A stretch of 64,000 bases of DNA from NCBI GenBank assembly GCA_046483495.1, contig JAWODC010000044.1, forward strand, positions 166,247-230,246, given 5' to 3'. The notes beneath the pieces are model-generated. The model was not told where the DNA came from. It saw only the letters and a program-made list of their open reading frames with translations, and did not search any database. Made by a program: the position numbers and the translations under genes. Positions 13,938 to 33,159 of this stretch are shown one piece after another. Origin of the DNA: Desulfobacterales bacterium (GTDB lineage Bacteria; Desulfobacterota; Desulfobacteria; Desulfobacterales; UBA5616). Each line of letters begins with the position of its first letter. The first letter of the stretch is position 1.

Positions 13938-16385
13938 CTACGGCTTGGCCATTGACGGGCTCAACACCGGTTCATCGGAAGCAGACGCCACCGGCTGGAC
14001 AGCTTCATCCTTGATCAGATAACGCGCCAGTGCAGGCAGGAGAACCATGGCGCCCACCATATTCCAGAGAAACATGAAGGTTAACAAAAATCCCATGTCC
14101 GCCTGGAATTTAATCGGCGAAAACGCCCAGGTCGCCACACCGATGGACAAGGTGATGCCGGTAAACGAAACCGCCCGGCCCGTGGTATTCAACGTCCGGT
14201 AGTAGGCGGCGGTCAGTTTATGACCTCTTTCCCGGTAATATAAAAGCCGATTGTATATATAGATACCGTAATCCACACCGATGCCGACACCCACCGCAAT
14301 GACGGGAAGGGTGGCCACCTTGATGCCGATGCCCGTTTTCGCCATCAGCGCCTCGCACAATACAGAGGTTAAAACGAGCGGCGTAACGACGCATATGGCG
14401 CCCCTGAAGTTGCGATAGGTCACCAGGCAGACCAGAAAAACGACGGCGTAAACCAACATCGTCAACATCACGAGCGCTTTTTCCACCTCGATATTCGTGG
14501 CCGCTTCGATGCCGGCGTTCCCTGCAGCCATGAGGAACCGGTATGTATCGGTGTCGTATTCTTGAGAAAAGGCTTCAACAGTCGCTACGACTCGTTCCAG
14601 CGTCTCCGCCTTGTGATCATCCAGAAACACCATGATCGGTGTCAGGTCACCGGTCTGCTTTTGAAAATCCGTAGGGATCTTGAGCACCATGTTGTCGAGT
14701 GCGACCTTGCTTCGAGGCAACGCCGTCCATTTGAGATTGCCTTCCATGAAGGCCGAATTGAGCATTTTCAAAAAGGCTACATGGCTTTTGACCATTTGAA
14801 CGCCTTTCAGCCCCGACAGCTGCCACACCAGTTTGTCCGTCGCCACCACCACTGGATATGAACTGTTGCCCGCCGGCGGTGTTTTCAGCATCACCACAAA
14901 GACATCGCTGCTGGTCGAGTAATGTTCGTTCATGTAGGCATTATCCCGGTTGTACCGCGAATCCGTCCGCAATTCAGGGGCCCCGGGATCCAGGTCGCCG
15001 GTTTTTAAATCCTGCCGGGCCCAGAGGCCGCCCGCAAGCCCTATGATAGCCAGGGCGATGGCCACATTTGCATATCGCGTTTGCGTGAATTTCGACAAAA
15101 ACACCCATGCGGGATGGTCGGTGCCGGCCTCTCGCTTTTTCAACAATTCGATCGTTTTTTGACTGATGCCGGAATAGGACATCAGGATAGGCAGCAAGGA
15201 CAAATCGGTAAAGGCCACAACAGCCACACCGATACTGGCGCCGACGGCGATATCCTGGATAACACCGATGCGTATGGACATCAGTGTGGCAAATCCGATA
15301 CAGTCGGTCAGCAGCGCCGCCAGGCCGGGTCTGTATATCTGACGGTAAGCCAGCCGTGCGGCTTTCAGCTTGTCGGCACCGCCGATCATTTCATGGGCCA
15401 TGGCATTGAACATCTGAATACCGTGGCTGACGCCCAATGCAAACATCAGAAAGGGGACCAGCATGGAATAGGGATTCATGCCGTAGCCGAACAGCCGCAT
15501 GATGCCCAATTGCCATATGACAGCCACTATAGAGGAAATGGCACGCATGGCCGTGCTCTTGACGCACCTCGAGTTAAACCACAGCAAAAATAAGAGAATG
15601 AAAAAGGCGATCAAGAAAAATAGAAGGACACGGGTCGATCCCTCGATCAAATCACCGACGATTTTGGCGAACCCGGTGATGTGGATCTTGATCGTGTCGC
15701 TTTGGAAACGGGTCCTGAGATCTTCGAGCTTTTGTGAAAAAACCTGGTAATCCAGCGGCTTGCCCGTCTCGGGGTCAATATCGTACAGGGGTGCTACAAT
15801 GACGCTGGATTTGAAATCGTTGGCCACGAGGCTGCCGACCTCACCGGATTTGAGAACATTCAACCGAACTTGGTCGAGACTGGCCTGACTGCCGTTGTAC
15901 GTCGGTGGTATGACCTCCCCACCTGCAAATCCCTCTTCGGTCACTTCCGTCCAACGGGTGATCGGTGTCCAAAGAGACTTGAGGCCGCTTCGATTCACGC
16001 CGGAAACATAAAAGACCTCATCGGTCATGTTTTTCAGGACTTCCATGTATTCTTCGGTATAAATATCCCCCTGGGTGGTCTCCACGCAAATGCGCACACG
16101 ATTGCCCAATCCCCTGAGGTCTTCCTGGTGGGCAATGTAATTTTTAATATAAGGATGATAGGTTGGAATCATCCTCAGAAAACTCGCCTCGGGTCTCATC
16201 TGCAGCATGTGATACCCGAGGAAAACGGTGATCAGTGTGAATACGGCCAAAAACAGCGGACGATTGGCAAACAGCAGCCGCTCGAGCAAGGGGGCGCTGT
16301 CCAGGTATGAATCCCCTTCATATTCATAGGCATCGTCGTTTATGTTCAGGTCATTACCCAATGATGTATTCTTCTTCCGGGTCAT
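13938..16385 (-). CDS. RND/MMPL-family transporter
   Basis: 815 aa, two TM repeats, GVSHGIQ and GIGVDYGIY motifs; last gene of the DUF1302 module. Confidence 0.9.
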   Translation of the reverse strand: MTRKKNTSLGNDLNINDDAYEYEGDSYLDSAPLLERLLFANRPLFLAVFTLITVFLGYHMLQMRPEASFLRMIPTYHPYIKNYIAHQEDLRGLGNRVRICVETTQGDIYTEEYMEVLKNMTDEVFYVSGVNRSGLKSLWTPITRWTEVTEEGFAGGEVIPPTYNGSQASLDQVRLNVLKSGEVGSLVANDFKSSVIVAPLYDIDPETGKPLDYQVFSQKLEDLRTRFQSDTIKIHITGFAKIVGDLIEGSTRVLLFFLIAFFILLFLLWFNSRCVKSTAMRAISSIVAVIWQLGIMRLFGYGMNPYSMLVPFLMFALGVSHGIQMFNAMAHEMIGGADKLKAARLAYRQIYRPGLAALLTDCIGFATLMSIRIGVIQDIAVGASIGVAVVAFTDLSLLPILMSYSGISQKTIELLKKREAGTDHPAWVFLSKFTQTRYANVAIALAIIGLAGGLWARQDLKTGDLDPGAPELRTDSRYNRDNAYMNEHYSTSSDVFVVMLKTPPAGNSSYPVVVATDKLVWQLSGLKGVQMVKSHVAFLKMLNSAFMEGNLKWTALPRSKVALDNMVLKIPTDFQKQTGDLTPIMVFLDDHKAETLERVVATVEAFSQEYDTDTYRFLMAAGNAGIEAATNIEVEKALVMLTMLVYAVVFLVCLVTYRNFRGAICVVTPLVLTSVLCEALMAKTGIGIKVATLPVIAVGVGIGVDYGIYIYNRLLYYRERGHKLTAAYYRTLNTTGRAVSFTGITLSIGVATWAFSPIKFQADMGFLLTFMFLWNMVGAMVLLPALARYLIKDEAVQPVASASDEPVLSPSMAKP

Positions 16386-16391
16386 TACGGT

Positions 16392-17582
16392 TTATCCTTT
16401 TTCTCTGCGGATTGGATCATTGAGATCTATTCGGGTATATCCTCTCAATCCAACCACCATAAGAACGTTTTCTTCGGGCTCTGCCAGAGAAATGCTCCCC
16501 GGAAAACGCACCGGAAGGCGGCTGAACGTTTTTCCGCCGTCAATGCTACGCATGACATATCCATCGACTCCGGCGATGCAAAGAGAGCCGTCTGAAAGAA
16601 GTAAGCCTCCGGAGATGGATGCGGTCATTCCGGTATCCAGCGCGGACCATGTTTCTCCCCTGTCACGGGACATATACATGTGCCCCCGCAGCCCGTATGC
16701 GGCTACAAAGCCGCCTCCAGGATCTGCGACTATGCCGAAGAAGGATCCTTCATAAGGCGATTCCAAGGCCTTCCAGGTTCTGCCGAAATCTTCGGAGCGA
16801 AACAGCATACCCCCCTCCCCCGCCATGAACAAATCACTGCCGCATCGGGTGATACCGTAAAAATGATACCCATAGGGGTTATAGATTTGATCCAGCAGCG
16901 GTTTCCAATGTTTCCCACCGTCATCCGTCCTGAAAATCATGCCGAATGAACCGATTACGAGTCCTTCCCGCTCATTTTTGAACCAAACATCCATCAGAGG
17001 CCGCGTCGGGCCTTCTTCCACCGCCAGTTCGACATCGCTGAGAAAAAATCCGAGATCTTCAATTTCAATTTTGAGCGTTTCTTTAGCATCTTCATCGAGC
17101 CCGGAATTTTCGTCCTCCAGCATGGCGGTCTTTTCGCGAATCATCTGCTTTAATTGCGCGAAGATAAGATCATTGATTTTTCGGCCGTCCAACTGCTTGA
17201 CCCATGTTCGGCCGCCGTCTTCAGAGTGCAAAATCACCCCGTCGTGCCCGACGGCCCATCCCTTTTCAGTCGTAGGGAAGTGAACCGCCGTAAGCGTGAC
17301 ACTGACCGGAACATCCGCCTGGTCCCAATCATTGCAGGCGGAATCCGACCTTAAAATAAACCCGCGTTCTCCGACCGTGAATATTTTACCGTTTACACAC
17401 TGGATATCCATCAATATCGAATTCGCCGCCCTTTCCGATTTTTCCGCCGGCATTTCCAGCAGGTCGCCGGGGTCCTGCGCAAAAACCGGTCCGGCGATAA
17501 AGAGCATGAACAATCCAATGAACAGTCCCGGCCATCGTCCACCACTTCCTGTAAATCGCTTTCCCGCGTATCTAATCGTCAT
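16392..17582 (-). CDS. YCF48/BNR-repeat beta-propeller protein
   Basis: Signal peptide, repeated SxDGGxTW (BNR) motifs, GWAVGHDG. Confidence 0.9.
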   Translation of the reverse strand: MTIRYAGKRFTGSGGRWPGLFIGLFMLFIAGPVFAQDPGDLLEMPAEKSERAANSILMDIQCVNGKIFTVGERGFILRSDSACNDWDQADVPVSVTLTAVHFPTTEKGWAVGHDGVILHSEDGGRTWVKQLDGRKINDLIFAQLKQMIREKTAMLEDENSGLDEDAKETLKIEIEDLGFFLSDVELAVEEGPTRPLMDVWFKNEREGLVIGSFGMIFRTDDGGKHWKPLLDQIYNPYGYHFYGITRCGSDLFMAGEGGMLFRSEDFGRTWKALESPYEGSFFGIVADPGGGFVAAYGLRGHMYMSRDRGETWSALDTGMTASISGGLLLSDGSLCIAGVDGYVMRSIDGGKTFSRLPVRFPGSISLAEPEENVLMVVGLRGYTRIDLNDPIRREKG

Positions 17583-17681
17583 TATTTACTTTCCCATTCA
17601 TGTAATTATGCCGTCTGCCTTCGATGCGTCTCGCGGCCTCCCATCGTTCCGGAAAACCGGAGACGCATGCCTTTTTGTCGG

Positions 17682-19076
17682 CTATCGTTTTCCAATTTTA
17701 CGAACGTTTTCCGGTGTCAGTACGTCAGGCGGCACATCCTCCCACCACAGGACTTTGCCTTGGTCTTCATAACCGTTAAGCATTCCGCTTGTGGCATAAC
17801 TGTCCGTCTGGAAATCATAGAGTGCGTAGCAGCGCTGCACCCAGCAGGGCATCGCATAATTGGCATATTGGGCGTTCATATGCATCCGCCAGAGGTTGCC
17901 GCGCGTATCGTACTTGTCATGCAGTGAATTGTTCCAGGAATCTTCATCCATATAAAGGACCCGTTTGCCGTAGCAATGGCGTTTGCCCTCTTTGAGGGTG
18001 GCCTCCACGACCCATGTCCGGTGCAGCTCCCAGCGGAAATATTCCGGATTCCAGTGGTAAGGCGTCAACAGATCGTCAACAGGCGCCAAATCGATTTGAT
18101 AGGAATTATAGCCGATAAAAATTTCCTTTTTCCCCAGCAGCTTCCAGTCGAACCGGTCGATCTGACTGTTGAACATATAGGCATCGTCATAAGTGGCCAA
18201 TCCGCCGTAGGAGGGGTTGGGCGTGTCGTAGGCGATGCTCGGGGCGCGCCTCACCCGGCGCTGTCCGGGCATGTACTGCCAGTTCCCCTTGTCCGCGATC
18301 CGGGTATAATCTAAAGGCGCTATGGACAGAATGATTTCACCTTTCCGGCGGGCAGGCTCGAAGTACTCGATCAGCACGCCTGACAGCCACCCGCTCCAGG
18401 TCTCGAGGGACCCGTCTTTGTCATAATATGGAACGTCGAAGGTGTAATACGCACCGCCGCCCACCGTCTTGCTGCCGTTGGCATGCACCAGCCAGCACCG
18501 TGTGAGCTCGCCGTGGTCCCCGCCGCTCCAGCGGCATTGATGATTGAAAACCACCTCCGCCCCGTGCTTGGGAATGGGAAACGGGACGCCGGCATATCCG
18601 CCGCGGGCACCGTTCTTGTCCTCGGTCAGTTCGAAGGTCAGGGCGTTCTGGTACGTGTTGTCATACACCCACTGGGGTGCGGCAAACGTTCGTCGGCTGG
18701 GGTACACATGCATTTTCCAGGTCTCGGGGTATTTCTTGAACATCTCCTTCACGCCATCGGAAAGCTTGTCCGCGTATTCGCCCATGTTTTCGGCGGTGAT
18801 GGTGAACAGTATTTCGTCATCGGCGAAGGGGTCGGGGAAGGTTCCGCCCGAAGCCGGGTCGTACTGTACATTGTCCGGAATGGCGGTCAAACCGCCCTCC
18901 CACGCGGGAATCGTGCCATCGGCATTGCCCGCCCGCTCGGCCCCCGTGGGGGTCAAATCCTTTTTCAGGCGCTCCGCCTCTTCTACCGATACCTTGGCCT
19001 GGAGCGGCAGTGCCGCCCACAAAAAACCGATTACCAGAAGCAAAATACTTATTTTTTTCCTTACGTTTTGCATCAT
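17682..19076 (-). CDS. DUF1329 periplasmic protein
   Basis: LTPTGAERAGNADGTIPAW, PFPIPK, GQRRVRRAP, RWELHRTWVVEATLK, DEDSW. Confidence 0.9.
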   Translation of the reverse strand: MMQNVRKKISILLLVIGFLWAALPLQAKVSVEEAERLKKDLTPTGAERAGNADGTIPAWEGGLTAIPDNVQYDPASGGTFPDPFADDEILFTITAENMGEYADKLSDGVKEMFKKYPETWKMHVYPSRRTFAAPQWVYDNTYQNALTFELTEDKNGARGGYAGVPFPIPKHGAEVVFNHQCRWSGGDHGELTRCWLVHANGSKTVGGGAYYTFDVPYYDKDGSLETWSGWLSGVLIEYFEPARRKGEIILSIAPLDYTRIADKGNWQYMPGQRRVRRAPSIAYDTPNPSYGGLATYDDAYMFNSQIDRFDWKLLGKKEIFIGYNSYQIDLAPVDDLLTPYHWNPEYFRWELHRTWVVEATLKEGKRHCYGKRVLYMDEDSWNNSLHDKYDTRGNLWRMHMNAQYANYAMPCWVQRCYALYDFQTDSYATSGMLNGYEDQGKVLWWEDVPPDVLTPENVRKIGKR

Positions 19077-19108
19077 TGAATCCTCCGTGTTTAAAAACGA
19101 TTACATCG

Positions 19109-20668
19109 TTAAAAGGTGTACTTCAGGTCCACACCGATAAAGTCGCGGTCTGCCAGACCGTACCGGTTGTTATTGAAATACGCCACATACTTGAGATTGG
19201 CCTTGTAGACGTTCTTCCAGGTGAAGTTGACCCCGATGGACCCGCTGTCCTGACCCTCTTGAAACGTGTTGTTCGGGGATGAGCCGTTGGGAAAATACTT
19301 AAAATTGATGGGGAATTCCACGTCGAGATTGGGAATCAATTGGTAGTACTTCGGGGTGACGGCCAGCGCCAATCCCCAGGAAAAGTCACTGGGTTCCATG
19401 TCATCGTTGTCCAGCCCCTGGACCTTGTTCATCCCCACCTCGCCGGCGATGGTCACGTCATCGAAAACGGGATTCTGGCCTAAAAGGTAGAGCCAGGACA
19501 ACTGGGCCTGGACCATGTTGCCGGGTTCGTACACAAACGAGGTGATGTTGATCGGATAGTCCTTGCGATAGGTGATTTCACCGCTGACCTGAACCTGCCC
19601 GACCAGCGAGCTGAAGCTGGCGCCGTAAAGTTTGATGTCTTCTCCATAACCCAGATAGTATCTAAAGGTAAAAGGATCTAAGAGCACCATCGGAGCCTTT
19701 TCGTGGTAATTGATATAATAGAAGCCGAATTCGGTCTCGAGCAGCTGATGGGAACGGTACATCAACATAAAGCCGTATTGGCCGCCTTCACTCGGATCGT
19801 CATCGTTTCCTCGACGGATTAAAATAGGTGCTCCTGTTTCCGGGTTCACACCGGCAATAATAGCGTAACCGGCCTGATCCAGCATATCGGTAGTGCTGAA
19901 GTAGCTTCCGGATTCATTCAGAATGTGCTCCTCCCATTCCCATTGGTAAAAGGCCGCCATGGAAAGGTTGCTCAAAAGGTCCATGCGCATGGATACCGAC
20001 TCCGACGGCAGGTAGATCTCCCGCAGCTCCACTCCGGGGACATTGGCCGCCGTGAGGTCCGCATGGCTCATGGCCGATGCGACACCGCCGGACAGATAGA
20101 GCTGCTCGCCCCATGCGATCACCTGCTGGCCCACCCGCAGATCCACGAGACGGCTGAGCAACTCGAAGTTGGCATAGGCGAAATAATCCAGGATGTCTAC
20201 GTCGTATCCCATCACCTCCTCGAGTTCGTCGTCGAACTCGTCCGGTTCGTCTATGGCGCCCGCCAGAAAGTTATTGTTGAATGGGTGTTTGGCCAGACCA
20301 GGATTGGAGTTTTCGTTCATGTAGACAAAATCGTAGAACGCCCGGGGCCGAAGAAAGACACCGACATTCTTGTGCTGAATGTCGATGTCGGCGATGGCGC
20401 TGAACCGGTTGTTGATCATGTCCCACTGGTCGAAGTTCCATCCGCCGTCATCGCTGTTTATACCCCCGGGAAGTTTCATCGCCACATTGTCCAGATCGCG
20501 GTCCTCCACCCGCCATCCGCCGGCCCAGGACAGGGTCACGTCGAAATCGACGATGGTGTCCCTGCTTAGACCGAACCGCATGGCGTCCGCCGACCCACAC
20601 ACCAGGAAAACACCGAAAACCAAAACAACAAAACCTAACATGTTTCTTCGATTCTTTTTGTACCTCAT
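19109..20668 (-). CDS. DUF1302 outer-membrane beta-barrel protein
   Basis: NSDDGGWNF, RVGQQVIAWGE, YQWEW, C-terminal DRDFIGVDLKYTF ending in Phe. AGGAG RBS before ATG 20668. Confidence 0.9.
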   Translation of the reverse strand: MRYKKNRRNMLGFVVLVFGVFLVCGSADAMRFGLSRDTIVDFDVTLSWAGGWRVEDRDLDNVAMKLPGGINSDDGGWNFDQWDMINNRFSAIADIDIQHKNVGVFLRPRAFYDFVYMNENSNPGLAKHPFNNNFLAGAIDEPDEFDDELEEVMGYDVDILDYFAYANFELLSRLVDLRVGQQVIAWGEQLYLSGGVASAMSHADLTAANVPGVELREIYLPSESVSMRMDLLSNLSMAAFYQWEWEEHILNESGSYFSTTDMLDQAGYAIIAGVNPETGAPILIRRGNDDDPSEGGQYGFMLMYRSHQLLETEFGFYYINYHEKAPMVLLDPFTFRYYLGYGEDIKLYGASFSSLVGQVQVSGEITYRKDYPINITSFVYEPGNMVQAQLSWLYLLGQNPVFDDVTIAGEVGMNKVQGLDNDDMEPSDFSWGLALAVTPKYYQLIPNLDVEFPINFKYFPNGSSPNNTFQEGQDSGSIGVNFTWKNVYKANLKYVAYFNNNRYGLADRDFIGVDLKYTF

Positions 20669-21388
20669 TTTTTTCTCCTCTTTTTTGGGTTTGGTTTTAT
20701 GTCTTCTCCGCATTAGAGATGCAAGGGAATTGAAACAACACCTAAGTCAAAAAAAATGAGCAAAAAAACAAATGCTTGCAAAAAAAGATACCACCATCAC
20801 CCTCCCTGCCACCATGGCACCGGCTCGTTTGGTGCGATGTTTAAGGCAAGCCCATCCGAGTACCCGTTCGATGACACATATGTGTTTGAAAAAAGGCAAA
20901 ATACGAAAGATCGATGGAAAGCGGCAGGTGAATGGGGGAAGCCGATAACAGTCGCTTGAAGCATTGACACACCGTTGATTGTTTTTATTTCAACTTTCGG
21001 AATAAAAAAATTCGGTTGGGTCATTCGATATAAAAGCCGAAAGTTTACATGGTATCGCAAGGCATACCGGAATATATCCGACAACATTGAAATGAAAGCG
21101 ATAATTGCCATTTGCATCTATGGGTTGATTCTTAGTATGTTGATTTTGTTTAGTCAATATTAAATTATGAATCAGATACAAAAAAATAAACTATTCATTT
21201 ATATTTAGAACTTATTTGATAAAATAAACTGATATATATCCATTGTGGATGCATCAGCACAGAAAATCTTTAATTTCGATGTGAAATACGAGATGGTCGT
21301 TCGCCGGTTTGGGATGATCCAAACCGCCCTGTCATGACCCCCGAATATTGAAATGAAAGCCGAGCCGAATGTGTCGGATAAGGATCGA

Positions 21389-22402
21389 TTATTGAACCGA
21401 TCGAAGAAACGTGCGCAGGTTGACTTTTTTGTGGGTGATGCCGAGCTTTGCCCTGATGTTGCGGCGATGAAATTCGATCGTGCGCAACGAAAGATTCAGG
21501 ATATCGGCGATTTCTTTGTTGACCTTTCCCTGGGTGATCAGGTCGGCCACCTGGATTTCCATCGGCGACAGGCTCAAGTGGTAAGTGGATAATTTTTGCA
21601 TCAGCGGGGACATAATGTGTTCGATGTTATTCTCAAGGATATCCAGATAGGCCTTCTGCCGTTTTTTCGGGGATATTTTTCTCAGCTTTTCCAGTGTCGG
21701 CAGAACCAGGTTTCTCAAATTCAGTGCAACCTTTTCTTCGAGTTCGGCCTTGTCCGCATCCCGCTTTTCCAGCAGCACCTTGAGCGCGATATTGGCTTCA
21801 TGCAAATGGGCGGTGCGCTGTTCGACGGTTTCCTCCAATTCCTGGTAGGCTTTCCGGAGCTTTTCCTCGGCCGCTTTGCGGTCCGTAATTTCCCGGCTGA
21901 CTCCCAGGATCAAAGAAGGTTCATCTTTCTCATTGAAAAGAAAACGTGCCTTCAATTCCACCCAAACGGTTCTGCCGCTTTCGTGCCGCTGGCCGACCTC
22001 GAGCTTGAACGGAGAATCCTGGGGCCTGTCGCAATTTTTCAACAGCGATAAAATATCGGCCATAAACCGCCTGAATTTGGTTCTTTCCTCGACAATAATG
22101 ATATCCTCCCACTCCAGGTCCATGGCCCTTTCAGGACAATACCCGAGCAGATGTCGAATGGAGGGGCTGATAAAGGTGAATTTTTCAGCGTTGAAGTCAA
22201 ACATCCAGATAACATCGGAGACATTATCGGCAAATAATTTGTACTTTTTTTCCACTTCATCGAGCTGCCGTTTCAGTTTCCGGTTTTCACAAATCAACTG
22301 TCGCCCGGTCTTCTCGTAATCCTTCATATCGTCTGGTCCATTCCCGATCATTCTTGCACAATTGCCGCGTTCCTTTTTTATCATGTTTGTAAAATAATTC
22401 AA
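21389..22402 (-). CDS. PAS-domain LuxR-family transcriptional regulator
   Basis: PAS/PAC (DVIW..WVE..GVSREITDRK), coiled coil, LuxR HTH (LSPMEIQVADLI..NKEIA..TIEFHRRNIRAKLG). Start uncertain. Confidence 0.9.
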   Translation of the reverse strand: MNYFTNMIKKERGNCARMIGNGPDDMKDYEKTGRQLICENRKLKRQLDEVEKKYKLFADNVSDVIWMFDFNAEKFTFISPSIRHLLGYCPERAMDLEWEDIIIVEERTKFRRFMADILSLLKNCDRPQDSPFKLEVGQRHESGRTVWVELKARFLFNEKDEPSLILGVSREITDRKAAEEKLRKAYQELEETVEQRTAHLHEANIALKVLLEKRDADKAELEEKVALNLRNLVLPTLEKLRKISPKKRQKAYLDILENNIEHIMSPLMQKLSTYHLSLSPMEIQVADLITQGKVNKEIADILNLSLRTIEFHRRNIRAKLGITHKKVNLRTFLRSVQ

Positions 22403-22631
22403 CTCTTCCTTACAGCTCGAATGATTGAACTTTCCTTGCCGCTCTCCGGTCCGGGCGCAGGCCTTTCAAACTCATTTTTCGCTACGGGGTTTTACTGCCA
22501 ATTCCCCAAGTTTTTACCGGCGTTGACCGGCTCTAACCAGCATTCTATAAGAAAATATCATTTAGTTTCTTCAACCCCGGCAATTCAGTTTGGGTCCATC
22601 CGGAAATCGAAACATGGAAAGGAGTTTACAG

Positions 22632-23858
22632 ATGGGAGTAAAAAGAAGAAGGCTGAACAGCTTCAGGTGTTCGGTCGGTTTAATCGCTTTGATCCTTGTG
22701 TTTTCCGTCCCCGCACTCGCGGAGGAACCCAAGGCCGGCGACGTGGTCGATTCGAGCAATATCGAACAGTATTCAGACTACCTGCCGTCCTTTTTGGCCC
22801 GTTTCGTCAAGGATGGATGGGGCTTTGAAAAACCCGTCGTCATTCACGTCACCAACCCCAAACCCTGGCCCATAACCAAGCGGTTTGCAGAAGCGACGAA
22901 AAACAACATCGGGAAGGTCACGCTCACATCCGACGGGCTGCTGGAGGACTACGAAGAAATCGGGCTTCCGTTTCCGAATCCTCAAGAGCCGGATCTCGCT
23001 TTGAAAATCATGTGGAACCGGTATTACAAGGATTTGCCCGACGACTGGAGCCTGCCCGTATCGTTCAAGTCATACACAAGGCGCAAGGGCGGCGCCGTTA
23101 ATTATTCCGACAGCATTTACGATGCACTGCAGTTCTCCGGGCGAACCTATGTAGAACCCTATCCGGTGCTCCCGAATCCGCACGGGTTGCGCCAGGCGAC
23201 CCTGTCCAATTCCCTTACTCCGCCCAACAAAGACATGGCGACATTGACCTGGCGGTATGTAGAGCCGCTCAAAATGGATGACATGTGGACTTATGTGCCG
23301 ACATTGAGAAGGACGCTTCGTATGGTTTCATCGGAAAGGGCCAATCCGATTCGGGGCCTCCCATTGACATGGGACGAACTTTTCGGGTTTGACGGCAAGG
23401 TGCCGCAATTTACCTATAAATTGTTGCGAGAGCAGAAAATTCTGGTGCTGGCCGACCAGAATAAGACAGGAGACGACATTCCGCCCGGATACGAAATTCA
23501 TCCGGTGCTGTTCGGAGAAGACGAACCCTACCAGGTGATGGATACGTATGTCGTTTCCATTAATTCTAAAGATCCGAGATATCCGAATTCGGACTGGCAC
23601 CTCTGGGTGTCGAAAAGGAATTACGCCGGCATTTACGCGGAAACGTACAACCGGCGCGGCGAATTCTGGAAAGGCTACTTCCAGTCCTTCCAGGTTCGTC
23701 CTCTCGGCGATACGGGGGAGCAGTTTCCGATCAGTATCTGCAGCGGCGTCTGTGATTTTATTACCCAGTACTGGTATTTTTCATGGACTGGTGAACTCAA
23801 CATGAACACGGGCCTCAATCCGATTCAGTTCGATCCGGGTTCATTGGGAGCCTATTGA
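22632..23858 (+). CDS. Divergent DUF1329-like periplasmic protein
   Basis: Signal peptide, GDVVDSSN, GLPFP, DDMWTYVPTLRR, YNRRGEFWK. AAGGAG RBS. Confidence 0.75.
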   Translation: MGVKRRRLNSFRCSVGLIALILVFSVPALAEEPKAGDVVDSSNIEQYSDYLPSFLARFVKDGWGFEKPVVIHVTNPKPWPITKRFAEATKNNIGKVTLTSDGLLEDYEEIGLPFPNPQEPDLALKIMWNRYYKDLPDDWSLPVSFKSYTRRKGGAVNYSDSIYDALQFSGRTYVEPYPVLPNPHGLRQATLSNSLTPPNKDMATLTWRYVEPLKMDDMWTYVPTLRRTLRMVSSERANPIRGLPLTWDELFGFDGKVPQFTYKLLREQKILVLADQNKTGDDIPPGYEIHPVLFGEDEPYQVMDTYVVSINSKDPRYPNSDWHLWVSKRNYAGIYAETYNRRGEFWKGYFQSFQVRPLGDTGEQFPISICSGVCDFITQYWYFSWTGELNMNTGLNPIQFDPGSLGAY

Positions 23859-25342: not shown

Positions 25343-28300
25343 TCAATGAATTTTATGCGGGTGTATCCCGAGCTTTCTCATTCGGCTGTACAGAGTGGTC
25401 CGCTTCATGCCCAACAGGTCGCCGGCACCTCCCTTTCCGCCGATTTTCCCATTGGTTTTTTCAAGAATATGCCGAATGTAACGCCGTTCAAGTTCTTCAA
25501 GAGAGGGGGTTTCGCCTAAAAGTCGGTCGGGTACGGCTAACCGGTATTTCGGTGCGTTGTCTTCGCTCGTCTGTGGAACCGGTTGTCCGGCTTTCAATTG
25601 GGCAAAATCCATTTTTCCGTTGGACGACAGCAGCACAGCCCTTTCCAATACATTTTTCAATTCCCTGACATTGCCCGGCCAGGGATAACGGGTGAGCGCC
25701 TCCATGTCGTCGGGTAAAATGGACAGTCCTTCCTTGCCGTACTTAACGGCATACTGAGACAAATAATGTCGGGCTATCACGACAATATCGTCAATTCTTT
25801 CCCGCAGCGGCGGAATTCGAATGGGCATCATGTTCAGGCGATAAAACAGATCCTGACGGAACCGCTCTTCGGTTACTTCTTTCTCCAGTTCACGGTTGGT
25901 GGCGGCAACCAGCCGAAAATCGGAGGTCAGGGTGCGGGTCCCTCCAACCCTGACAAACGTCTTTTCCTGCAGAAAACGCAGGAGCTTTACTTGAAAAGCC
26001 GGGGGAATTTCACCGATTTCATCCAACAAAAGGGTTCCGTTGTGCGCCAGCTCGATCCGCCCCCGTTTCTGCTGATCGGCACCGGTGAAGGCGCCTTTTT
26101 CATACCCGAACAGCTCGCTTTCAAGCAGGTTTTCCGGAATGGCGGTCAAATCAACCACCTCGAAAGGGCCGGGTTTGCGCGGACTGATTCGGTGAATCTG
26201 CCGCGCCAGCACCTCTTTGCCCACACCGGTCTCGCCCTGGATCAACACGGTCGTGTCCGTAGCCGCGACCTGCTCGACTTCGGCCAAAAGCCGTGTCATT
26301 CCCTTGCTTTTAAAAACCAGCGCCTCTCGCTGCAGCTGTTCGATCTGTACGGTTTGCGCGGATGATCGAATGCTGGTTTCCTTTTTAAGATGTTCGAATT
26401 CGACAAACTGCTCGATGTGATCGTCGAGAAAACGGGTCAACCGGGTCATTATCCGGTCATCCAATAAATGAAACCTGTTTTCAAGATAGGTGTTGTCAAA
26501 GTAATATACGTCGGCTACTCGACCGTATTTAACCACGGGAAGGCATATCATTTCACGGATATAAGGATATCGCCGGGTGTCTTCGTCACCGGGTGCGGGT
26601 TCGAACCTCCGGGCACTTTGGGTCTTTACGGCGTTTTGCATCACCTCGAGAACGGGGCTGAAATCCTCTCCCGACACGTCGAAATCCGTCATGTTGTATC
26701 CGGTCCGGAGCCGTACGTTTTCGCCGGACGGCGGGTCGACCTTGAAAACCGCCCCCCGTTCCGCCTTTAAAAGTCGGCATGCATATTTTAAAATGCGGGA
26801 CAGGATCCGGTTCGCATTATCGCCGACGGTTTCAAATTCAAATACCGTAAAACACCGGGCCACGAAACTCCTGTACTCACGGACGGTTTTTTCCGATTCA
26901 TTCCGGCGGTCCAACAATTGGGACAAATCCTCGGGGAACATAAATTCCAGGTCGTGCTGCAGGAGAGTGTCATATGCGGATTCGGCCAGAAGGCGCGCCT
27001 GGAGCATTTTGTTTTCCAGAATTTTGAGCCGAACGAGTTCGAGTTGTGTCTTGGATTTTTCAATCGGATCTCCCGACTGTTCCAGGTATTTTTTGCTTTT
27101 CTTGAGATGCGATCGTGCGAGATCGAGCGAATCATTGCGTCGAAAGGCGGATTTGGCCAGTATCCGGTATGCAGCGCCTTTGGCATGAATGTTGGGCGCC
27201 TTCTGTATCCACTCGATCTCGCTTTTTAGATTCAATCGCGGATTCACCGGCAATCCCCTTGCCTCCATTTCAAAAATCATCTCCAGTATGTGCGGAGCCG
27301 TATACAATCGTGCAAACCCGTCCGTTCCGCCGATGATGGCGGGCCGCTCCATTTGCGTTCGCGCCTCATCGATACGTCCCTCGATGAAGCGTTGAAAGAT
27401 CAGACTGCCTTCCGCAATGGTTATGGCAAACGTATTGCTTGTGCGAAGCGCTTCCTTTTTCGCCATGTCCAGCTGAAATGCCGCCTCTTTGTATTTGCCA
27501 GCCATCTGAAGAACGGCACCCAAAATGGCTCGAATGGTGGTGGCCAGTGCATTTTGGGAGCGCCTGGCGGCCACACGCATGGAACTGGCGAGACCTCCCA
27601 CGGCATCGTGGAAATGGCCGAGGTTGGCTACACACCATCCCAGCAAAAACGGCATGGGGAGTGGACCTAAGCTCATGCTTTCACCGCCCTGCATCTCGAA
27701 ATCGATATTTGCACGCTCCAGATACGGTTCCGCTTCTCTGAACATGCCCTTCAAGAAAAAATTCAATCCCAGAAATGCGGCCGACCGGTTCAAAATATCC
27801 TCATCCCCGAGCTCTTCGACCTCTGCCAATCCCTCGGAAAGCGCCTTGGAGGCGTCTTCATGCTGCCGTGCAATATGCAGAAAAATGGACAGGTTGAGGT
27901 TGATCAAGGCATGAGAGCGCCGGTCACCCAACCGGCCGGCCATGGAACGCGCCTTTTTCAAGAAACGGGGCAGTTCCATAAAACCGGTTCCTAAGGATAG
28001 GCAAAGGTCGGAAAGTTTAAGGGTGGCCGATATAAACATTCGGTCAAAGCGCGGATCTTCCGATATTTCGTAAAGTTTTTTTACCACATTCCAGAGATGA
28101 TGCATGGCCAGGTGCTGGTCCCCCGATTTCAGAGCCTTTCTGGCCTGATTGATTTCCAATTCCGCAATGTCGGTAATCCGGCCGGTTTTATTCAGCAGTC
28201 CCCTTACGACGTCCGAATCGATATGGTCGATCATATCGAGTTCGAGAAGCCGATCGACAATCTCGGATAACCGCCGGCTGTTATTAAATGCATCGATCCT

Positions 28301-28525
28301 TTTCTTGAGCGGTTTCGGCAGGTCGGGTGAAATGCTGAACAGGTTCTTGCCGATTTCCCTGATCAATGCCGGATGGCGATGATGCCCCAACAGTTCCATA
28401 AACGGCGCCGGTAATATAGGGGAAAGTTTACCCGCCGTTTCGAGAGAAACCGGTTTTTCAAGCGCATACAAAACCGATAAAAATTTCAACTGTTCATCGG
28501 AAAGGTTAAGGGATTGACTGTCCAT
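25343..28525 (-). CDS. Large sigma54-dependent activator (helical/TPR-like sensor, GAF, AAA+, HTH)
   Basis: GETGVGKE, ESELFGYEKGAFTGA, LLDEIGE, RQDLFYRL, WPGNVRELKN, C-terminal HTH. Confidence 0.93.
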   Translation of the reverse strand: MDSQSLNLSDEQLKFLSVLYALEKPVSLETAGKLSPILPAPFMELLGHHRHPALIREIGKNLFSISPDLPKPLKKRIDAFNNSRRLSEIVDRLLELDMIDHIDSDVVRGLLNKTGRITDIAELEINQARKALKSGDQHLAMHHLWNVVKKLYEISEDPRFDRMFISATLKLSDLCLSLGTGFMELPRFLKKARSMAGRLGDRRSHALINLNLSIFLHIARQHEDASKALSEGLAEVEELGDEDILNRSAAFLGLNFFLKGMFREAEPYLERANIDFEMQGGESMSLGPLPMPFLLGWCVANLGHFHDAVGGLASSMRVAARRSQNALATTIRAILGAVLQMAGKYKEAAFQLDMAKKEALRTSNTFAITIAEGSLIFQRFIEGRIDEARTQMERPAIIGGTDGFARLYTAPHILEMIFEMEARGLPVNPRLNLKSEIEWIQKAPNIHAKGAAYRILAKSAFRRNDSLDLARSHLKKSKKYLEQSGDPIEKSKTQLELVRLKILENKMLQARLLAESAYDTLLQHDLEFMFPEDLSQLLDRRNESEKTVREYRSFVARCFTVFEFETVGDNANRILSRILKYACRLLKAERGAVFKVDPPSGENVRLRTGYNMTDFDVSGEDFSPVLEVMQNAVKTQSARRFEPAPGDEDTRRYPYIREMICLPVVKYGRVADVYYFDNTYLENRFHLLDDRIMTRLTRFLDDHIEQFVEFEHLKKETSIRSSAQTVQIEQLQREALVFKSKGMTRLLAEVEQVAATDTTVLIQGETGVGKEVLARQIHRISPRKPGPFEVVDLTAIPENLLESELFGYEKGAFTGADQQKRGRIELAHNGTLLLDEIGEIPPAFQVKLLRFLQEKTFVRVGGTRTLTSDFRLVAATNRELEKEVTEERFRQDLFYRLNMMPIRIPPLRERIDDIVVIARHYLSQYAVKYGKEGLSILPDDMEALTRYPWPGNVRELKNVLERAVLLSSNGKMDFAQLKAGQPVPQTSEDNAPKYRLAVPDRLLGETPSLEELERRYIRHILEKTNGKIGGKGGAGDLLGMKRTTLYSRMRKLGIHPHKIH

Positions 28526-28602: not shown

Positions 28603-28774
28603 TTGTCATTGCGACAGTTTTGTTTAAAAAACAACTAAAAAGTGTCAATATTTAAACACCTAATGACCTGATTTTCTCCAAACCGGTATTCCATCTCAAT
28701 TTGTATGTATTTTAAAGAGGTTAGCTTCAGAATACAATTTATAAAAAAATATAAAACATGGCACATTTTATGCA
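28603..28774 (+). promoter_or_regulatory. Sigma54 -24/-12 promoter with candidate upstream activator sites
   Basis: TGGCACATTTTATGC at 28759-28773 (GG-N10-GC). TGTC-N5-GACA palindrome at about 28604 and GTGT-N10-ACAC at about 28642. AT-rich spacer. Confidence 0.75.
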
Positions 28775-28906
28775 TTTATATTTTGATAATGTATCAAGAT
28801 CATATTCTGAATGTCATACGGTTGCCATTTCAATCTGAGTCCGCTTCAAACGTCCTGATCCATTGTTCCAAGCATCTTTTAATCCGCATCAGAAAGGGGG
28901 AACACC

Positions 28907-30592
28907 TTGAAAGAAGTCTATGATGTCGTCATCATCGGAGGCGGTACAAACAGTCTCAGTATCGCCGGTTACCTGGGGAAATGCGGGCTTTCTGTTTGCA
29001 TTCTCGAAGCCCGCGGCGAATGCGGCGGGGGAGCGGAAAACACGGAGCCCATGCCGGGATGCAAAATCGACCCCCATGCGACGTATCTTTACGGCGGCGC
29101 AGCTCCCGCATTCGAGCAACTCGAACTTCATAAATTCGGCTTCCGAATGGTTCACTACAATGTCATGGGAGGCGGCGTGACATCAGACGGCAACGGCCAC
29201 CTTGCGGGTGCCCGAAACCCCGCCATTTTGGAAAAAACCGTCCGAAAACTTTCAGAAAAAGACCTCAAGACTATGGAACAGATGTCCGTGAGTTTCGGAG
29301 AATCACAAAAACTGGCGGAACTGCTGAGGTCCATTTACTGGACGCCTCCGCCGCCGCCCCACATTCAGCTCGGCGCGGAAGATCTGCCCTGGGCAAAAGT
29401 CTTCCGAAAACATCAGCACCCGCTGTATGACGATTCCTGGAATACCATGTCAACCATGGAACTTCTCGATTCGCTGTTCGACAATGAACAGATGAAAGTT
29501 TCATCGGCCATGGCCACATGGTACAACGGTCCCCACCCCAACTGGAAAGGAACGGCCATTCCGGGGTACTGCTGCAATCACCTGGTCGGATACAGCAGTG
29601 GAAAACCCAGGGGCGGCATGCATTCCCTGACCCACGCGCTGGTCCGATGCGCCATGCATTACGGCGCCAAAATCTACACCAACAGCAAGGTGGAAGAAAT
29701 CATCGTTGAAGACCGGGAAGCCAAGGGCGTCATTCTTGCCGACAATGCAACGGCCAAGAGCCGGAAGATTTACGCGGATAAAGCCGTTCTTTCCAACACC
29801 CACGTAAAACCGACCTTTCTCGAGCTGATTCCCGGCCGCGAACTGGACCCGATGTTTTTGGAGCGGGTTGAGGGAATCAACCTGAAAGGCGGCAGCCTTT
29901 TCGTCCTTTCCCTGGTTACCCGTGAAATGCCCAAATACAAGGGTGACGCCGAAGATATTTTTTCAAACGGCTGCTATCCTTCCTGTACATGGATCAATCT
30001 GGATTCACGGGAAGCCATGTACAATATGGAGCGGGTGGTGTATGCCTTGAATACCCATCCCATGCGCAAAGAGGATATGACATTGGCCTTCTTGAACCAT
30101 GATGTCTATGACAAGTCCTGCCAAACGCCGGAAGGATATCATGTTTTCACCCCGATTTATCTCCAGGTTCCGCCGCCGGAATACCATCGGGACGGCCCGA
30201 CCGCTGTAAATGACGCCAAATGGGACATCGTCGAGGTGATGCTGGAAAAGATCCGCGAGGTGGCCCCCAATTTGACGGACGACAAAATCGTCGCAAAATT
30301 CGTGAATACACCCTACGATTCTTCCTTGCGAAACATGGGCTTTGTCGGCGGCAACTGGATGGGCATCAGCCAGGAAGAAGAACAGTGGTATGTCAAAAAA
30401 CCGTTGCCTGAACTGTCGCGGTACCGGACGCCGATCAAAAATCTTTATTTGTGCAATCACTCCTCGTATCCCGGCGGACTGGCCCTGCAGGCGGTATCGT
30501 ATAATCTCATGCACATCCTGATCGAGGACTTAAAGCTGAAACCGGGCGAATGGTGGTATCCCTCACCCGACTTTATCCCGTCGGACGCCTGA
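28907..30592 (+). CDS. Phytoene-dehydrogenase-like FAD-dependent oxidoreductase (COG1233), paralog A
   Basis: DVVIIGGGTN, ILEARGECGGG, PRGGMHSL, YRTPIKNLYLC..SSYPGG. TTG start with AGGGGG RBS. Confidence 0.88.
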   Translation: MKEVYDVVIIGGGTNSLSIAGYLGKCGLSVCILEARGECGGGAENTEPMPGCKIDPHATYLYGGAAPAFEQLELHKFGFRMVHYNVMGGGVTSDGNGHLAGARNPAILEKTVRKLSEKDLKTMEQMSVSFGESQKLAELLRSIYWTPPPPPHIQLGAEDLPWAKVFRKHQHPLYDDSWNTMSTMELLDSLFDNEQMKVSSAMATWYNGPHPNWKGTAIPGYCCNHLVGYSSGKPRGGMHSLTHALVRCAMHYGAKIYTNSKVEEIIVEDREAKGVILADNATAKSRKIYADKAVLSNTHVKPTFLELIPGRELDPMFLERVEGINLKGGSLFVLSLVTREMPKYKGDAEDIFSNGCYPSCTWINLDSREAMYNMERVVYALNTHPMRKEDMTLAFLNHDVYDKSCQTPEGYHVFTPIYLQVPPPEYHRDGPTAVNDAKWDIVEVMLEKIREVAPNLTDDKIVAKFVNTPYDSSLRNMGFVGGNWMGISQEEEQWYVKKPLPELSRYRTPIKNLYLCNHSSYPGGLALQAVSYNLMHILIEDLKLKPGEWWYPSPDFIPSDA

Positions 30593-30750
30593 TCGTAACC
30601 ATACAAGTCGTTTTGACCGCACGCGAAATGAAAAACGCCGGAATCCTTCGCCGAAGATTCCGCAAGATTTTCGATCGGCGGAGTCCGGCAAACCGGGCCC
30701 GGCGAACGAAGAAACCGATGCCAACAACCGCTGTTTAGGAGGAAAACATT

Positions 30751-32424
30751 ATGCCAGTAAATAATCATCCCGGAAATGCTTCGTGGAAATATGACCTGCC
30801 GACGATTCCCAGGATGCCCGATGAAATATCGTGCGATGTCGCCGTAATCGGGGGAGGCCCCAATGGTTTGATTACAGCCGCATACCTGGCGAAAGCCGGC
30901 TTGAATGTGGTGCTGCTGGAGAGGCGGTATGAATTGGGGGGCGGCTTGGCCACCGAGGAAATCCTGTTTCCGTCTTACTGGGCAAACACCCATGCCACCT
31001 ATCATCTGATGGTGGATTACATGCCCGCCATATCGGATTTCGATCTGGCCAATCATTCCCTGCAATTTGTAAAGCCCCATCGCCAAACCGGCATCATTTT
31101 CAAAGATGGAAACTCCTGGATCATGTCGGACAAAATTCAGGACACCGCCGACCAGATTATGAAATATTCACGCGAAGATGCCGTTTCTTTCGAAAAATAT
31201 TCGAGAATGTTCATTCAAATGGTCGACGAGATCCTGGCCCCGGCCACCTATTACCAGCCCCTTCCGCCGATCGAACTGGCCGTAAAAACCGAACGCACAC
31301 CGATTGGGAAGGAAATGATGAAGCTTGCCGAGGACAGCCCGGTGGAAATTATCGACCGCATGTTCAAAGATGAACGCGTCAAAGCCCTCTTCTTGTATGT
31401 GACCTGCATGTGGGGTCTGGCGCCGAATGAGCCGGGCCTCGGCTACATGGTCCCGCTGCTCATGATCCGGAGCGGCATGAATAAATGCATCAGCATCGGG
31501 GGATCGCATAAACTGGCCAGCAGTCTTTCAAAAGAGATCATCAAGAACAACGGCCTGATTCTGGAAAACGCCGAAGTCACCAAAATAATCATGGAGGGCG
31601 GCAAAGCCGCCGGTGTTGAAATATTTGACGGCATGATCGTCAAAGCCAAAGCCGTCGTGTCCAGTCTCGATCCTAAAACGACCTTTCTGAACTTAATTGG
31701 TGAAGACCATCTTCCCCCTGCCCTGAAAAATTACGTAAACAACTGGGCCTGGGATAAAACCAGTTTTTTCACCACCCATGTCGCGTTGAAAAATCCGTTA
31801 AAATACAGGGCGGACGAACGGGAAATCGACAAGACCTTCATGAATATCGTCGGGATCGATTCGTACAATGAACTCGTGGACATGGCGGAAACCATTCGAT
31901 CCGGGAAAATCGGACCCATAGCGGGGCACTGCTCCGTGGAAACGATTTACGATCGAACCCTGTCACAGGTGCCCGGACATCACACGGCCTTTTTTCAAAT
32001 GCTGGTGCCGGGAATCGTCGAAGGAGGATGGGAAGATCAAAAAGAGCAGATCGAAAGCCGAATCATGGAAACCTGGGGGGAATACACCCACAATCTCAAC
32101 GGCGACAACCTGGTTATGGCATCTTCCGAGAGTCCGTTGGATATCGAACGCCGGATCCCCTGCATGAAGAACGGTTCGATTAAGCATGGCGAATACAATC
32201 CGCTGCAAATGGGCTATTTCAGGCCCAATGATTTATGCTCCCGAACAACAACACCCATCGAGGGGCTTTATGTCAACGGCGCCTCCACCTATCCCGGGGG
32301 TCTGATCATCGGAGGTCCCGGGTACATCGCCGCCAACAAAATTGCTGAAGATATGGGCATTTCCAAGTGGTGGAAGTATTCCGACAGCATCGAGCGTTAC
32401 GTAAAGCAATATATCGATGATTGA
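30751..32424 (+). CDS. Phytoene-dehydrogenase-like FAD-dependent oxidoreductase (COG1233), paralog B
   Basis: DVAVIGGGPNGL.AAYLAKAG, LERRYELGGG, GGSHKL, TPIEGLYVNGASTYPGG. AGGAGG RBS. Confidence 0.9.
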   Translation: MPVNNHPGNASWKYDLPTIPRMPDEISCDVAVIGGGPNGLITAAYLAKAGLNVVLLERRYELGGGLATEEILFPSYWANTHATYHLMVDYMPAISDFDLANHSLQFVKPHRQTGIIFKDGNSWIMSDKIQDTADQIMKYSREDAVSFEKYSRMFIQMVDEILAPATYYQPLPPIELAVKTERTPIGKEMMKLAEDSPVEIIDRMFKDERVKALFLYVTCMWGLAPNEPGLGYMVPLLMIRSGMNKCISIGGSHKLASSLSKEIIKNNGLILENAEVTKIIMEGGKAAGVEIFDGMIVKAKAVVSSLDPKTTFLNLIGEDHLPPALKNYVNNWAWDKTSFFTTHVALKNPLKYRADEREIDKTFMNIVGIDSYNELVDMAETIRSGKIGPIAGHCSVETIYDRTLSQVPGHHTAFFQMLVPGIVEGGWEDQKEQIESRIMETWGEYTHNLNGDNLVMASSESPLDIERRIPCMKNGSIKHGEYNPLQMGYFRPNDLCSRTTTPIEGLYVNGASTYPGGLIIGGPGYIAANKIAEDMGISKWWKYSDSIERYVKQYIDD

Positions 32425-32441
32425 TCGTCGAAACGGATCTG

Positions 32442-32492
32442 TGCCGCCCTTCCCCGGTTGGGGTGAGGGCGGCAGAGGATAGCGGTTTTTTT
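32442..32492 (+). terminator. Intra-operon hairpin, possible partial terminator
   Basis: tgccgccct...agggcggca stem with T7 at 32486-32492. Confidence 0.5.
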
Positions 32493-32536
32493 GTGCCATT
32501 TTTCACTCACTAGGTTGAAATGGAGGATTTCAGCGC

Positions 32537-32827
32537 ATGAAGATGTGGTCCGAAGGCCTGGGGAAAATCCAACTCGAAGTCGATTTTGCCCGATATTGGG
32601 TCGATAACGAAGAAAGCGGCACCGTGATCAAGGGTGTTACGGTTCAACCGGTCCAGTGGGATTTCAAGGCGACATTCACGAACAAAGACATTCCCGGCCT
32701 ATTGAACATCTTTTTCAAGCCCACGACATGGTTTTTCATCCTGCGAAATATTCACATGGTTTTTGTGTTCCTTTTTGAAAAGGCATTCAAACGCGATCGA
32801 TACGCCGTGGAGGTGAAAGCGAAATGA
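32537..32827 (+). CDS. Small hypothetical protein (paralog of next gene)
   Basis: GGAGG RBS; MKMWSEGLGK..G....PVQWDF....DI.GL.N.IF..FEK shared with 32824..33159. Confidence 0.8.
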   Translation: MKMWSEGLGKIQLEVDFARYWVDNEESGTVIKGVTVQPVQWDFKATFTNKDIPGLLNIFFKPTTWFFILRNIHMVFVFLFEKAFKRDRYAVEVKAK

Positions 32828-33159
32828 AAATATGGTCTAAAGGCCTCGGAACGATGGTCCTGAACATGGAATTCAGGCATTACTATGTCGAGATAAAAGA
32901 CGGGTGTCTCCTCATCAAGGGCCGAATCGAAGATCCCGTTATGTGGAATTTCGTCATTACGATAGAAAAAGAGGACATCCGCGGGTTGGCCAATGTCATC
33001 TTTAAGGGACGCTTCCTGGCTTTTTTGGGAAAAAATCTGCATTATTTCGCTGTTTTTTTCTTTGAAAAGCTATTCAGAAGAAGCGCCTACGCACACCCGG
33101 AAAGGGACATCGAATTGCCGGAAGATGTGTATTGCATTCAGAGCAATCCGGCTTCCTGA
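32824..33159 (+). CDS. Small hypothetical protein (paralog of previous gene)
   Basis: ATGA overlap, GGAGG RBS; MKIWSKGLG..KG....PVMWNF....DI.GL.N.IF..FEK. Confidence 0.8.
   Translation: MKIWSKGLGTMVLNMEFRHYYVEIKDGCLLIKGRIEDPVMWNFVITIEKEDIRGLANVIFKGRFLAFLGKNLHYFAVFFFEKLFRRSAYAHPERDIELPEDVYCIQSNPAS

Follow-up and report, generated by a model that had tools for sequence, protein, structure and literature searches.

A putative ctmABCD-type gene cluster in a Desulfobacterales genome and the CtmC/CtmD family of small proteins

The window considered here is a stretch of 64,000 nucleotides from a Desulfobacterales bacterium (GenBank assembly GCA_046483495.1, contig JAWODC010000044.1, positions 166,247 to 230,246 of the forward strand). 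It contains an operon of four genes, A to D, which encode two flavoproteins of the COG1233 group and two proteins of about 100 residues (Table 1). The small proteins are almost certainly members of the family of CtmC and CtmD, which are encoded in the limonene dehydrogenase (ctm) cluster of Castellaniella defragrans. Because C and D match CtmC and CtmD, which succeed ctmA and ctmB, the window holds a ctmABCD-type cluster that lacks ctmEFG and forms a subclade of its own. A preliminary description of this DNA had presented the locus as an undescribed enzyme complex. That claim is not supported, because the A-B-C-D order is the order already published as ctmABCD. The gene content itself was described correctly, namely two divergent COG1233 paralogues followed by two translationally coupled small paralogues with shared motifs; C and D align over 90 residues (E 3e-25). 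The architecture is therefore known, and what is less known is the C/D family itself. No role for CtmC or CtmD was found in the literature searched, and the available text of PMC5876002, PMC8449060 and PMC7411048 contains nothing decisive.

The reference for the comparison is the cluster of C. defragrans DSM 12141 (locus L070). Its ctmA (1698 bp) and ctmB (1650 bp) have the lengths published in PMC4109377, and they are followed by two genes that overlap, 107 and 113 codons long, and then by a 2Fe-2S ferredoxin and a reductase, corresponding to ctmC, ctmD, ctmE and ctmF. The small genes that the preliminary description mentioned for this cluster are thus ctmC and ctmD, homologous to C and D. 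A profile of the C/D family built without CtmC and CtmD matches both (E 3e-13 and 2e-9), and hhalign with the family profile gives 97.6% for CtmC and 97.1% for CtmD. In 2014, the two were hypothetical proteins with no relatives (E 2.3 and 4.1; PMC4109377, Table 1). The window shares with ctmABCDEFG the order alpha, beta, small, small, the small genes overlap by ATGA in both clusters, and the flavin histidine is likewise retained in A and B. The two clusters differ in that the ctmE ferredoxin, the ctmF reductase and ctmG have no counterpart after D, a LuxR-type regulator is replaced by a sigma54 activator, and CtmA and CtmB occupy a subclade different from those of A and B. Furthermore, the ctm host is a denitrifier, whereas the host of the window carries dsrA. 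The duplication of the small gene also looks independent in the two clusters: in the family tree, C groups with D and not with CtmC or CtmD (support 0.68 over 82 columns, which is weak), suggesting that a single small gene was duplicated repeatedly. The A-B-C-D order is kept in G001, G003, G004, G117 and G295 as well as in Castellaniella, which provided the only match among 401 sampled Burkholderiales genomes.

Two enzymes of the class to which A and B appear to belong are described in the literature searched: CtmAB (PMC4109377) and the sterol delta-24 desaturase (delta24-SD) of Sterolibacterium denitrificans (PMC11061730). By the features that can be tested, A and B would be covalent-flavin heterodimer subunits of this class and orthologues of neither enzyme, since the paralogue identity, the alpha and beta types and the aligned histidines all match. 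A is 29% identical to CtmA and 29% identical to a near relative of the delta24-SD alpha subunit; B is 37% identical to CtmB, 37% to a near relative of the beta subunit and 27-28% to alpha references, the near relatives (L138, L144) standing in for the S. denitrificans locus itself. The identity between A and B (27% over 554 columns) is comparable to that published for CtmAB (27%; PMC4109377) and for delta24-SD (26%; PMC11061730). In a FastTree phylogeny of 121 sequences, comprising A and 120 of the 167 collected (at least 505 residues) and having a root that is not clean, A lies inside the alpha clade together with CtmA and the desaturase-alpha relatives (support 0.995), and A and B each fall in a separate subclade (support 1.0). 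The kinship with CtmAB proposed in the preliminary description is borne out by these results. CtmAB has relatives closer than the window pair at L053 and L059 (41-47%), and the nearest A/B pair outside the group with A-B-C-D order, in G337, is 58-59% identical. Plasmid matches to B are distant (30% or less).

The flavin histidines can be located by alignment. Those that carry the flavin in the desaturase correspond to His57 in A and His81 in B, and His81 is invariant across 129 aligned relatives. The flanking consensus G-F-x-x-N-x-H-A is partly kept and is degenerate in the window subunits (IDPHA, ANTHA). The desaturase resembles the window in its adjacent alpha/beta pair and in the alpha histidine at position 57 (PMC11061730), and no ferredoxin gene is seen alongside the pair of its near relative L144. 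It differs in the low identity of A and B to its stand-ins, in the histidine motif, and in that its close relatives (L126, L138, L144, L146, L148) have one small gene upstream, whereas the window has two downstream. On visual comparison, the alpha N-termini of L138 and L148 are almost the same as that of the published delta24-SD alpha subunit, and both loci carry a small gene. Covalent flavin attachment and oxidation of an allylic carbon are traits of the class and are predicted for A and B by analogy.

Identification of A or B as a carotenoid enzyme (CrtI, CrtO, CrtD) was rejected, as the scores lie far under the NCBIfam cut-offs and no carotenoid genes are found nearby. The best NCBIfam match is CrtO (137 and 187 bits against a cut-off of 1000), the crtI family yields 41 and 77 bits against 238, and the Pfam matches of both proteins are limited to FAD-binding. 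Carotenoid COG1233 enzymes have a fold family in common with A and B, but CrtI binds FAD non-covalently (PMC11061730). Pfam scans of the window open reading frames from 1 to 39 kb revealed neither carotenoid nor ferredoxin genes, in agreement with the preliminary description on both counts. In A, a serine occupies the third glycine position of GxGxxG (28907-28960), as it does in the closest orthologues in G001, G003 and G004. Alpha subunits with cysteine at the position of the flavin histidine occur at L053:9007-10725, L057:8694-10358 and L064:9228-10901 and may represent a cysteinyl-flavin variant. The genome of the window also holds four more histidine-bearing COG1233 genes, including one pair (L001:7018-10276 on C52, L002:6797-8425 on C45, L003:7120-8754 on C18). 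None of the four has a small-family gene, C and D being the only copies in the genome.

The C/D family is large, with 277 matches at 90% clustering and at least 225 at 50% clustering. In 140 members, G7, G9 and W41 are invariant and M1, S5, L8, L13, P38 and D51 nearly so; the invariant residues are identical across clades with differing known substrates. C and D have no Pfam, NCBIfam or PDB-sequence match and no significant match in fold searches, a result that is not evidence of a new fold, and an ESM Atlas search with C returned unnamed clusters only. The model consists of five strands and three C-terminal helices (pLDDT 85, pTM 0.62). Its best fold match, to a COMMD chain, is weak (Z 4.1, rmsd 2.6, 58 aligned), as are those to Pur-alpha (Z 3.1) and MRP1/MRP2 (E 0.53, the best from Foldseek). 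One protein, P0214, is a natural fusion of two family domains; its single-sequence fold is uninformative (pLDDT 48). Long members (150-308 residues) add only low-complexity tails, with a Pfam match in none of the nine scanned. Among 150 listed representatives, none is long enough to be a flavoprotein fusion save P0140, which was rejected as a repeat artefact. Weak, motif-less relatives at L187:3906-4145 and L122:1471-1692 each neighbour an open reading frame of 420-430 residues with a similar N-terminus and could belong to a more remote branch that has a different partner enzyme.

The preliminary description had suggested that the small proteins either anchor the enzyme to the membrane or couple it to an electron carrier in place of the missing ferredoxin. 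The second suggestion is not supported, because the ctm cluster holds CtmCD as well as CtmEF and because no alignment column has cysteine or histidine in more than a quarter of the members. Judged from these alignments, C and D are not electron carriers. They are not integral membrane proteins either. On a 19-residue hydropathy scale, 21 of the 140 members reach 1.8 and only 3 reach the transmembrane-like value of 2.2. The C-terminal tails are basic in 124 of 140; the net charge of the small proteins is positive, with a median of +4. A discriminant for lipid-binding helices is passed by 101 of 134 tails against 6.6% of 2000 control windows, and 97 of 134, compared with 0.8% of the control windows, combine a pass with a favourable interface score; these controls were drawn from the flavoproteins. 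The hydrophobic, aromatic C-terminal helix of the preliminary description is thus retained as a helix, although it is amphipathic and not transmembrane.

The linkage of the small family to flavoprotein pairs was assessed in 401 genomes of the phylum, which include kin and are not independent, with CtmB-type genes defined at E 1e-75. A CtmB-type gene occurs in 42 genomes, a small-family gene in 41 and both in 36, so that the small family is present in 36/42 genomes with the CtmB-type gene and in 5/359 others. In the five genomes with a small gene only, it lies beside an alpha-type gene at a contig end (G041, G347), lies beside another COG1233 gene (G250), contains a run of N (G070) or is a weak, motif-less match (G326). 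Of 67 distinct small genes in genome-derived loci, 57 lie within 600 nt of a same-strand COG1233 gene, a share favoured by the fact that some loci were fetched with B, and 3 more lie within 2.5 kb. The metagenome set comprises 56 loci bearing the desaturase-alpha motif, some on shared contigs: 29 have a small gene (16 on the same strand), 16 lack one although 800 nt or more of upstream sequence is present, and the other 11 are too short. A single small gene is the usual arrangement, and both number and position vary; the copies in G010 and G020 precede flavoprotein pairs. Consequently, the proposal that the small family always accompanies COG1233 pairs stands as tight linkage but not as a strict one-to-one A/B/C/D association, and independent occurrence, which the preliminary description had regarded as counter-evidence, is rare. 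In G337, a small-family gene on C24 (L050:2056-5474) shares its operon with genes for a 4Fe-4S protein and a GMC-type flavoprotein, and the A/B genes are on another contig.

It is tentatively proposed, with a little less than even confidence, that C and D form a dimeric peripheral-membrane adaptor that docks A/B. In this mechanism, the divergent activator would sense the substrate and fire the sigma54 promoter, and A and B would assemble, each carrying a histidine-linked flavin. C and D would pair through their beta-sheet cores and sit on the membrane by their C-terminal helices, which are basic and amphipathic; their contacts with A/B would be the invariant M-x-x-x-S-x-G-L-G loop at the N-terminus and P-V-x-W. 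The enzyme so placed could meet its substrate and hand electrons to an acceptor in the membrane, for example menaquinone, a step that may require reverse electron flow or operate as a reduction if the host is a sulfate reducer. A loose membrane dock fits the combination of a conserved, protein-facing N-terminal surface with variable, basic, amphipathic tails, and the recurrent tandem pairs and the two-domain fusion P0214 hint at a dimer.

A number of observations weigh against docking. According to the available text of PMC11061730, the delta24-SD activity is wholly soluble and was enriched as two bands of about 60 kDa. The accessible parts of PMC4109377 report CtmC and CtmD as undetected in soluble and washed-membrane proteomes, and contain no ctmC or ctmD insertion among the limonene-negative mutants of a screen that was not saturating. 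The membranes had been washed with 1 M NaCl and at pH 11 (PMC4109377), a treatment that strips peripheral proteins and therefore cannot separate docking from maturation. The limonene dehydrogenase is also stated to require an acceptor of positive potential and may not operate in sulfate reducers (PMC12583861). By the helix discriminant, CtmC and CtmD fall below the threshold (0.88 and 1.13), and C and D are barely above it (1.38 and 1.36). CtmAB co-expressed in E. coli without CtmCD is reportedly flavin-bearing and active with an artificial acceptor. The linkage is also incomplete: no small gene was found in six of the 42 CtmB-type genomes (G073, G140, G163, G339, G340, G363; 90-99% complete, in 50-830 contigs), the A/B pair of G337 has none adjacent, 7 of the 67 small genes have no COG1233 gene in the fetched flank (two have a beta gene 3.5 and 8.5 kb away on the same contig), and 13 of the 29 small genes in the metagenome loci lie on the other strand. 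Opposite-strand and stand-alone copies would fit a factor that acts in low amounts or in trans.

Such a factor could be one that assists the folding, pairing or covalent flavin attachment of A/B transiently and stays outside the working enzyme, in the way that SdhE serves succinate dehydrogenase. This role in maturation is somewhat doubtful, yet the published negatives and the stand-alone copies fit it almost as well as docking. The small proteins were unseen in the enriched delta24-SD (available text of PMC11061730) and in the Castellaniella proteomes (PMC4109377). A single gene accompanies several pairs (L134, L175, L190), the opposite-strand copies are readily accommodated, the family tracks the histidine-bearing heterodimer clade with the same invariant residues whatever the known substrate, and a hairpin lies 5' of C. 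However, there are histidine-keeping pairs with no small gene found (G140, L105) as well as alpha subunits with cysteine for histidine beside small genes (L032, L053, L064), a soluble chaperone needs no basic, aromatic, sequence-variable tails, and the E. coli-made CtmAB is said to be flavinylated and active without CtmCD. A dimer that lifts a hydrophobic substrate from the membrane to A/B, with cyclodextrin as its substitute in published assays, would explain the hydrophobic helices and the cyclodextrin required in the delta24-SD assay (PMC11061730). It is nevertheless improbable, as one core would have to serve enzymes acting on limonene and on a sterol, two very different substrates, and some of these clusters (L015, L062) contain dedicated SCP2 genes.

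The stable four-subunit complex of the preliminary description, in which C and D would be stoichiometric subunits missed on gels for their size, is distinctly improbable despite the A-B-C-D order conserved in six loci and the translational coupling. The measured mass of delta24-SD (440 kDa against 480 calculated for alpha4beta4; PMC11061730) leaves no spare room, gene number and position vary, and the complex is doubtful because of the soluble two-band desaturase, the single small genes, and the detached or opposite-facing copies. A role as small nucleic-acid-binding regulators of the operon is very remote. The net positive charge, the opposite-strand copies and the likeness to Pur-alpha and MRP1/MRP2 point in this direction, but those fold matches are not significant, the small genes are often coupled within the operon, and many loci already have a TetR-, MerR-, LuxR- or sigma54-type regulator (most named by eye).

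The chances are about even that the substrate is a sterol or another isoprenoid chain. A lipophilic substrate, as put forward in the preliminary description, is likely in view of the desaturase-like neighbours and the hydrophobic-compound cluster upstream. Sister-clade pairs (37-44% identical to A, 44-50% to B) adjoin delta24-SD-like pairs at L123, L137, L153, L158, L168 and L172, an association that is biased because the loci were chosen by the desaturase motif; at one of the six, a molybdenum enzyme of the ethylbenzene-dehydrogenase type is also encoded (E 9e-90, below cut-off). At 13938-23858, 5-15 kb upstream of the operon, the window encodes DUF1302, two DUF1329, YCF48/BNR, an MMPL/RND transporter and a PAS-LuxR regulator; genes for an enoyl-CoA hydratase, an SDR, a flavin oxidoreductase and an acyl-CoA ligase come before these. 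The gene content suggests that this is likely a cluster for hydrophobic-compound uptake and beta-oxidation. The genome has seven DUF1302 matches. It also encodes glycyl radical enzymes (C18, C11, C59, C25, C56); the three of five that were scanned have no specific NCBIfam equivalog and offer no substrate clue.

The genome, which is 96.7% complete, encodes a dsrA that scores above cut-off, consistent with the strict anaerobe assumed in the preliminary description, and relatives of C and B carry the source labels Desulfobacterales or Thermodesulfobacteriota; the host is likely a sulfate reducer. The available text of PMC11061730 leaves the electron acceptor of delta24-SD unnamed. Due to the acceptor limit stated in PMC12583861, reverse electron flow or the reducing direction has to be considered. 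A far-reaching and unlikely extension of the docking proposal is that the covalent-flavin allylic dehydrogenases as a whole class have their missing partner for membrane docking and electron exit in the CtmC/CtmD family. With this partner, sulfate reducers would use the quinone pool to run a flavoenzyme that activates sterols or isoprenoids, either by reverse electron flow or in the reducing direction. If this were true, such flavoenzymes would run in organisms where they are thought unable to work. The window adds a sigma54-controlled subclade whose host carries dsrA, a setting in which a 2025 paper (PMC12583861) doubts that the chemistry can run. CtmC and CtmD now head a family that tracks these enzymes, and C. 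defragrans is a harmless strain open to genetic work.

Table 1. Coordinates of the operon and of associated features in the window
Feature	Position	Strand	Remarks
A, alpha-type (CtmA-like) COG1233 flavoprotein	28907-30592	+	561 aa, TTG start
B, beta-type (CtmB-like) COG1233 flavoprotein	30751-32424	+	557 aa
C, CtmC/CtmD-family small protein (almost certain)	32537-32827	+	96 aa; hhalign to CtmC/CtmD; model pLDDT 85
D, second CtmC/CtmD-family protein (almost certain)	32824-33159	+	111 aa; ATGA overlap with C; 42% identity to C
Sigma54-dependent activator, divergent, likely operon regulator	25343-28525	-	1060 aa; Pfam
Sigma54 -24/-12 promoter-like site	28759-28773	+	TGGCAC-N5-ATGC; one mismatch to consensus
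GC-rich hairpin between B and C	32442-32474	+	fold z -2.4; weak

The sigma54 promoter reported in the preliminary description is present as a site that, taken alone, is not above chance, the window having 6 one-mismatch matches to the -24/-12 pattern against 4.35 expected. It is, however, conserved in G001 and G003, 5' of their A orthologues, and both genomes retain a homologue of the divergent activator in the same place. In G004, the spacing is one base longer, and no such activator is found upstream. The activator of the window, which the preliminary description does not mention, has Sigma54_activat (E 9e-67) and HTH_8 domains in Pfam and is transcribed away from the operon. Contigs from RNA libraries of four salt-lake runs in two studies match A, B and C/D, many of them with at least 99% identity; they show presence in the libraries and not transcription, absence or levels. 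Most of the activator and the region of 33.6-34.5 kb are uncovered by them. Only 4 of 200 shuffled sequences are as stable as the hairpin between B and C, which may lower the expression of C/D or shield the A/B message from decay. The gene 3' of D is convergent and CAAX-protease-like (Pfam). In G003, large homologous open reading frames of the sigma54-activator type flank the orthologous ABCD operon on both sides (L017:7196-10339, 14857-18153), and the genome of the window has more long activator-type paralogues on C7 and C71.

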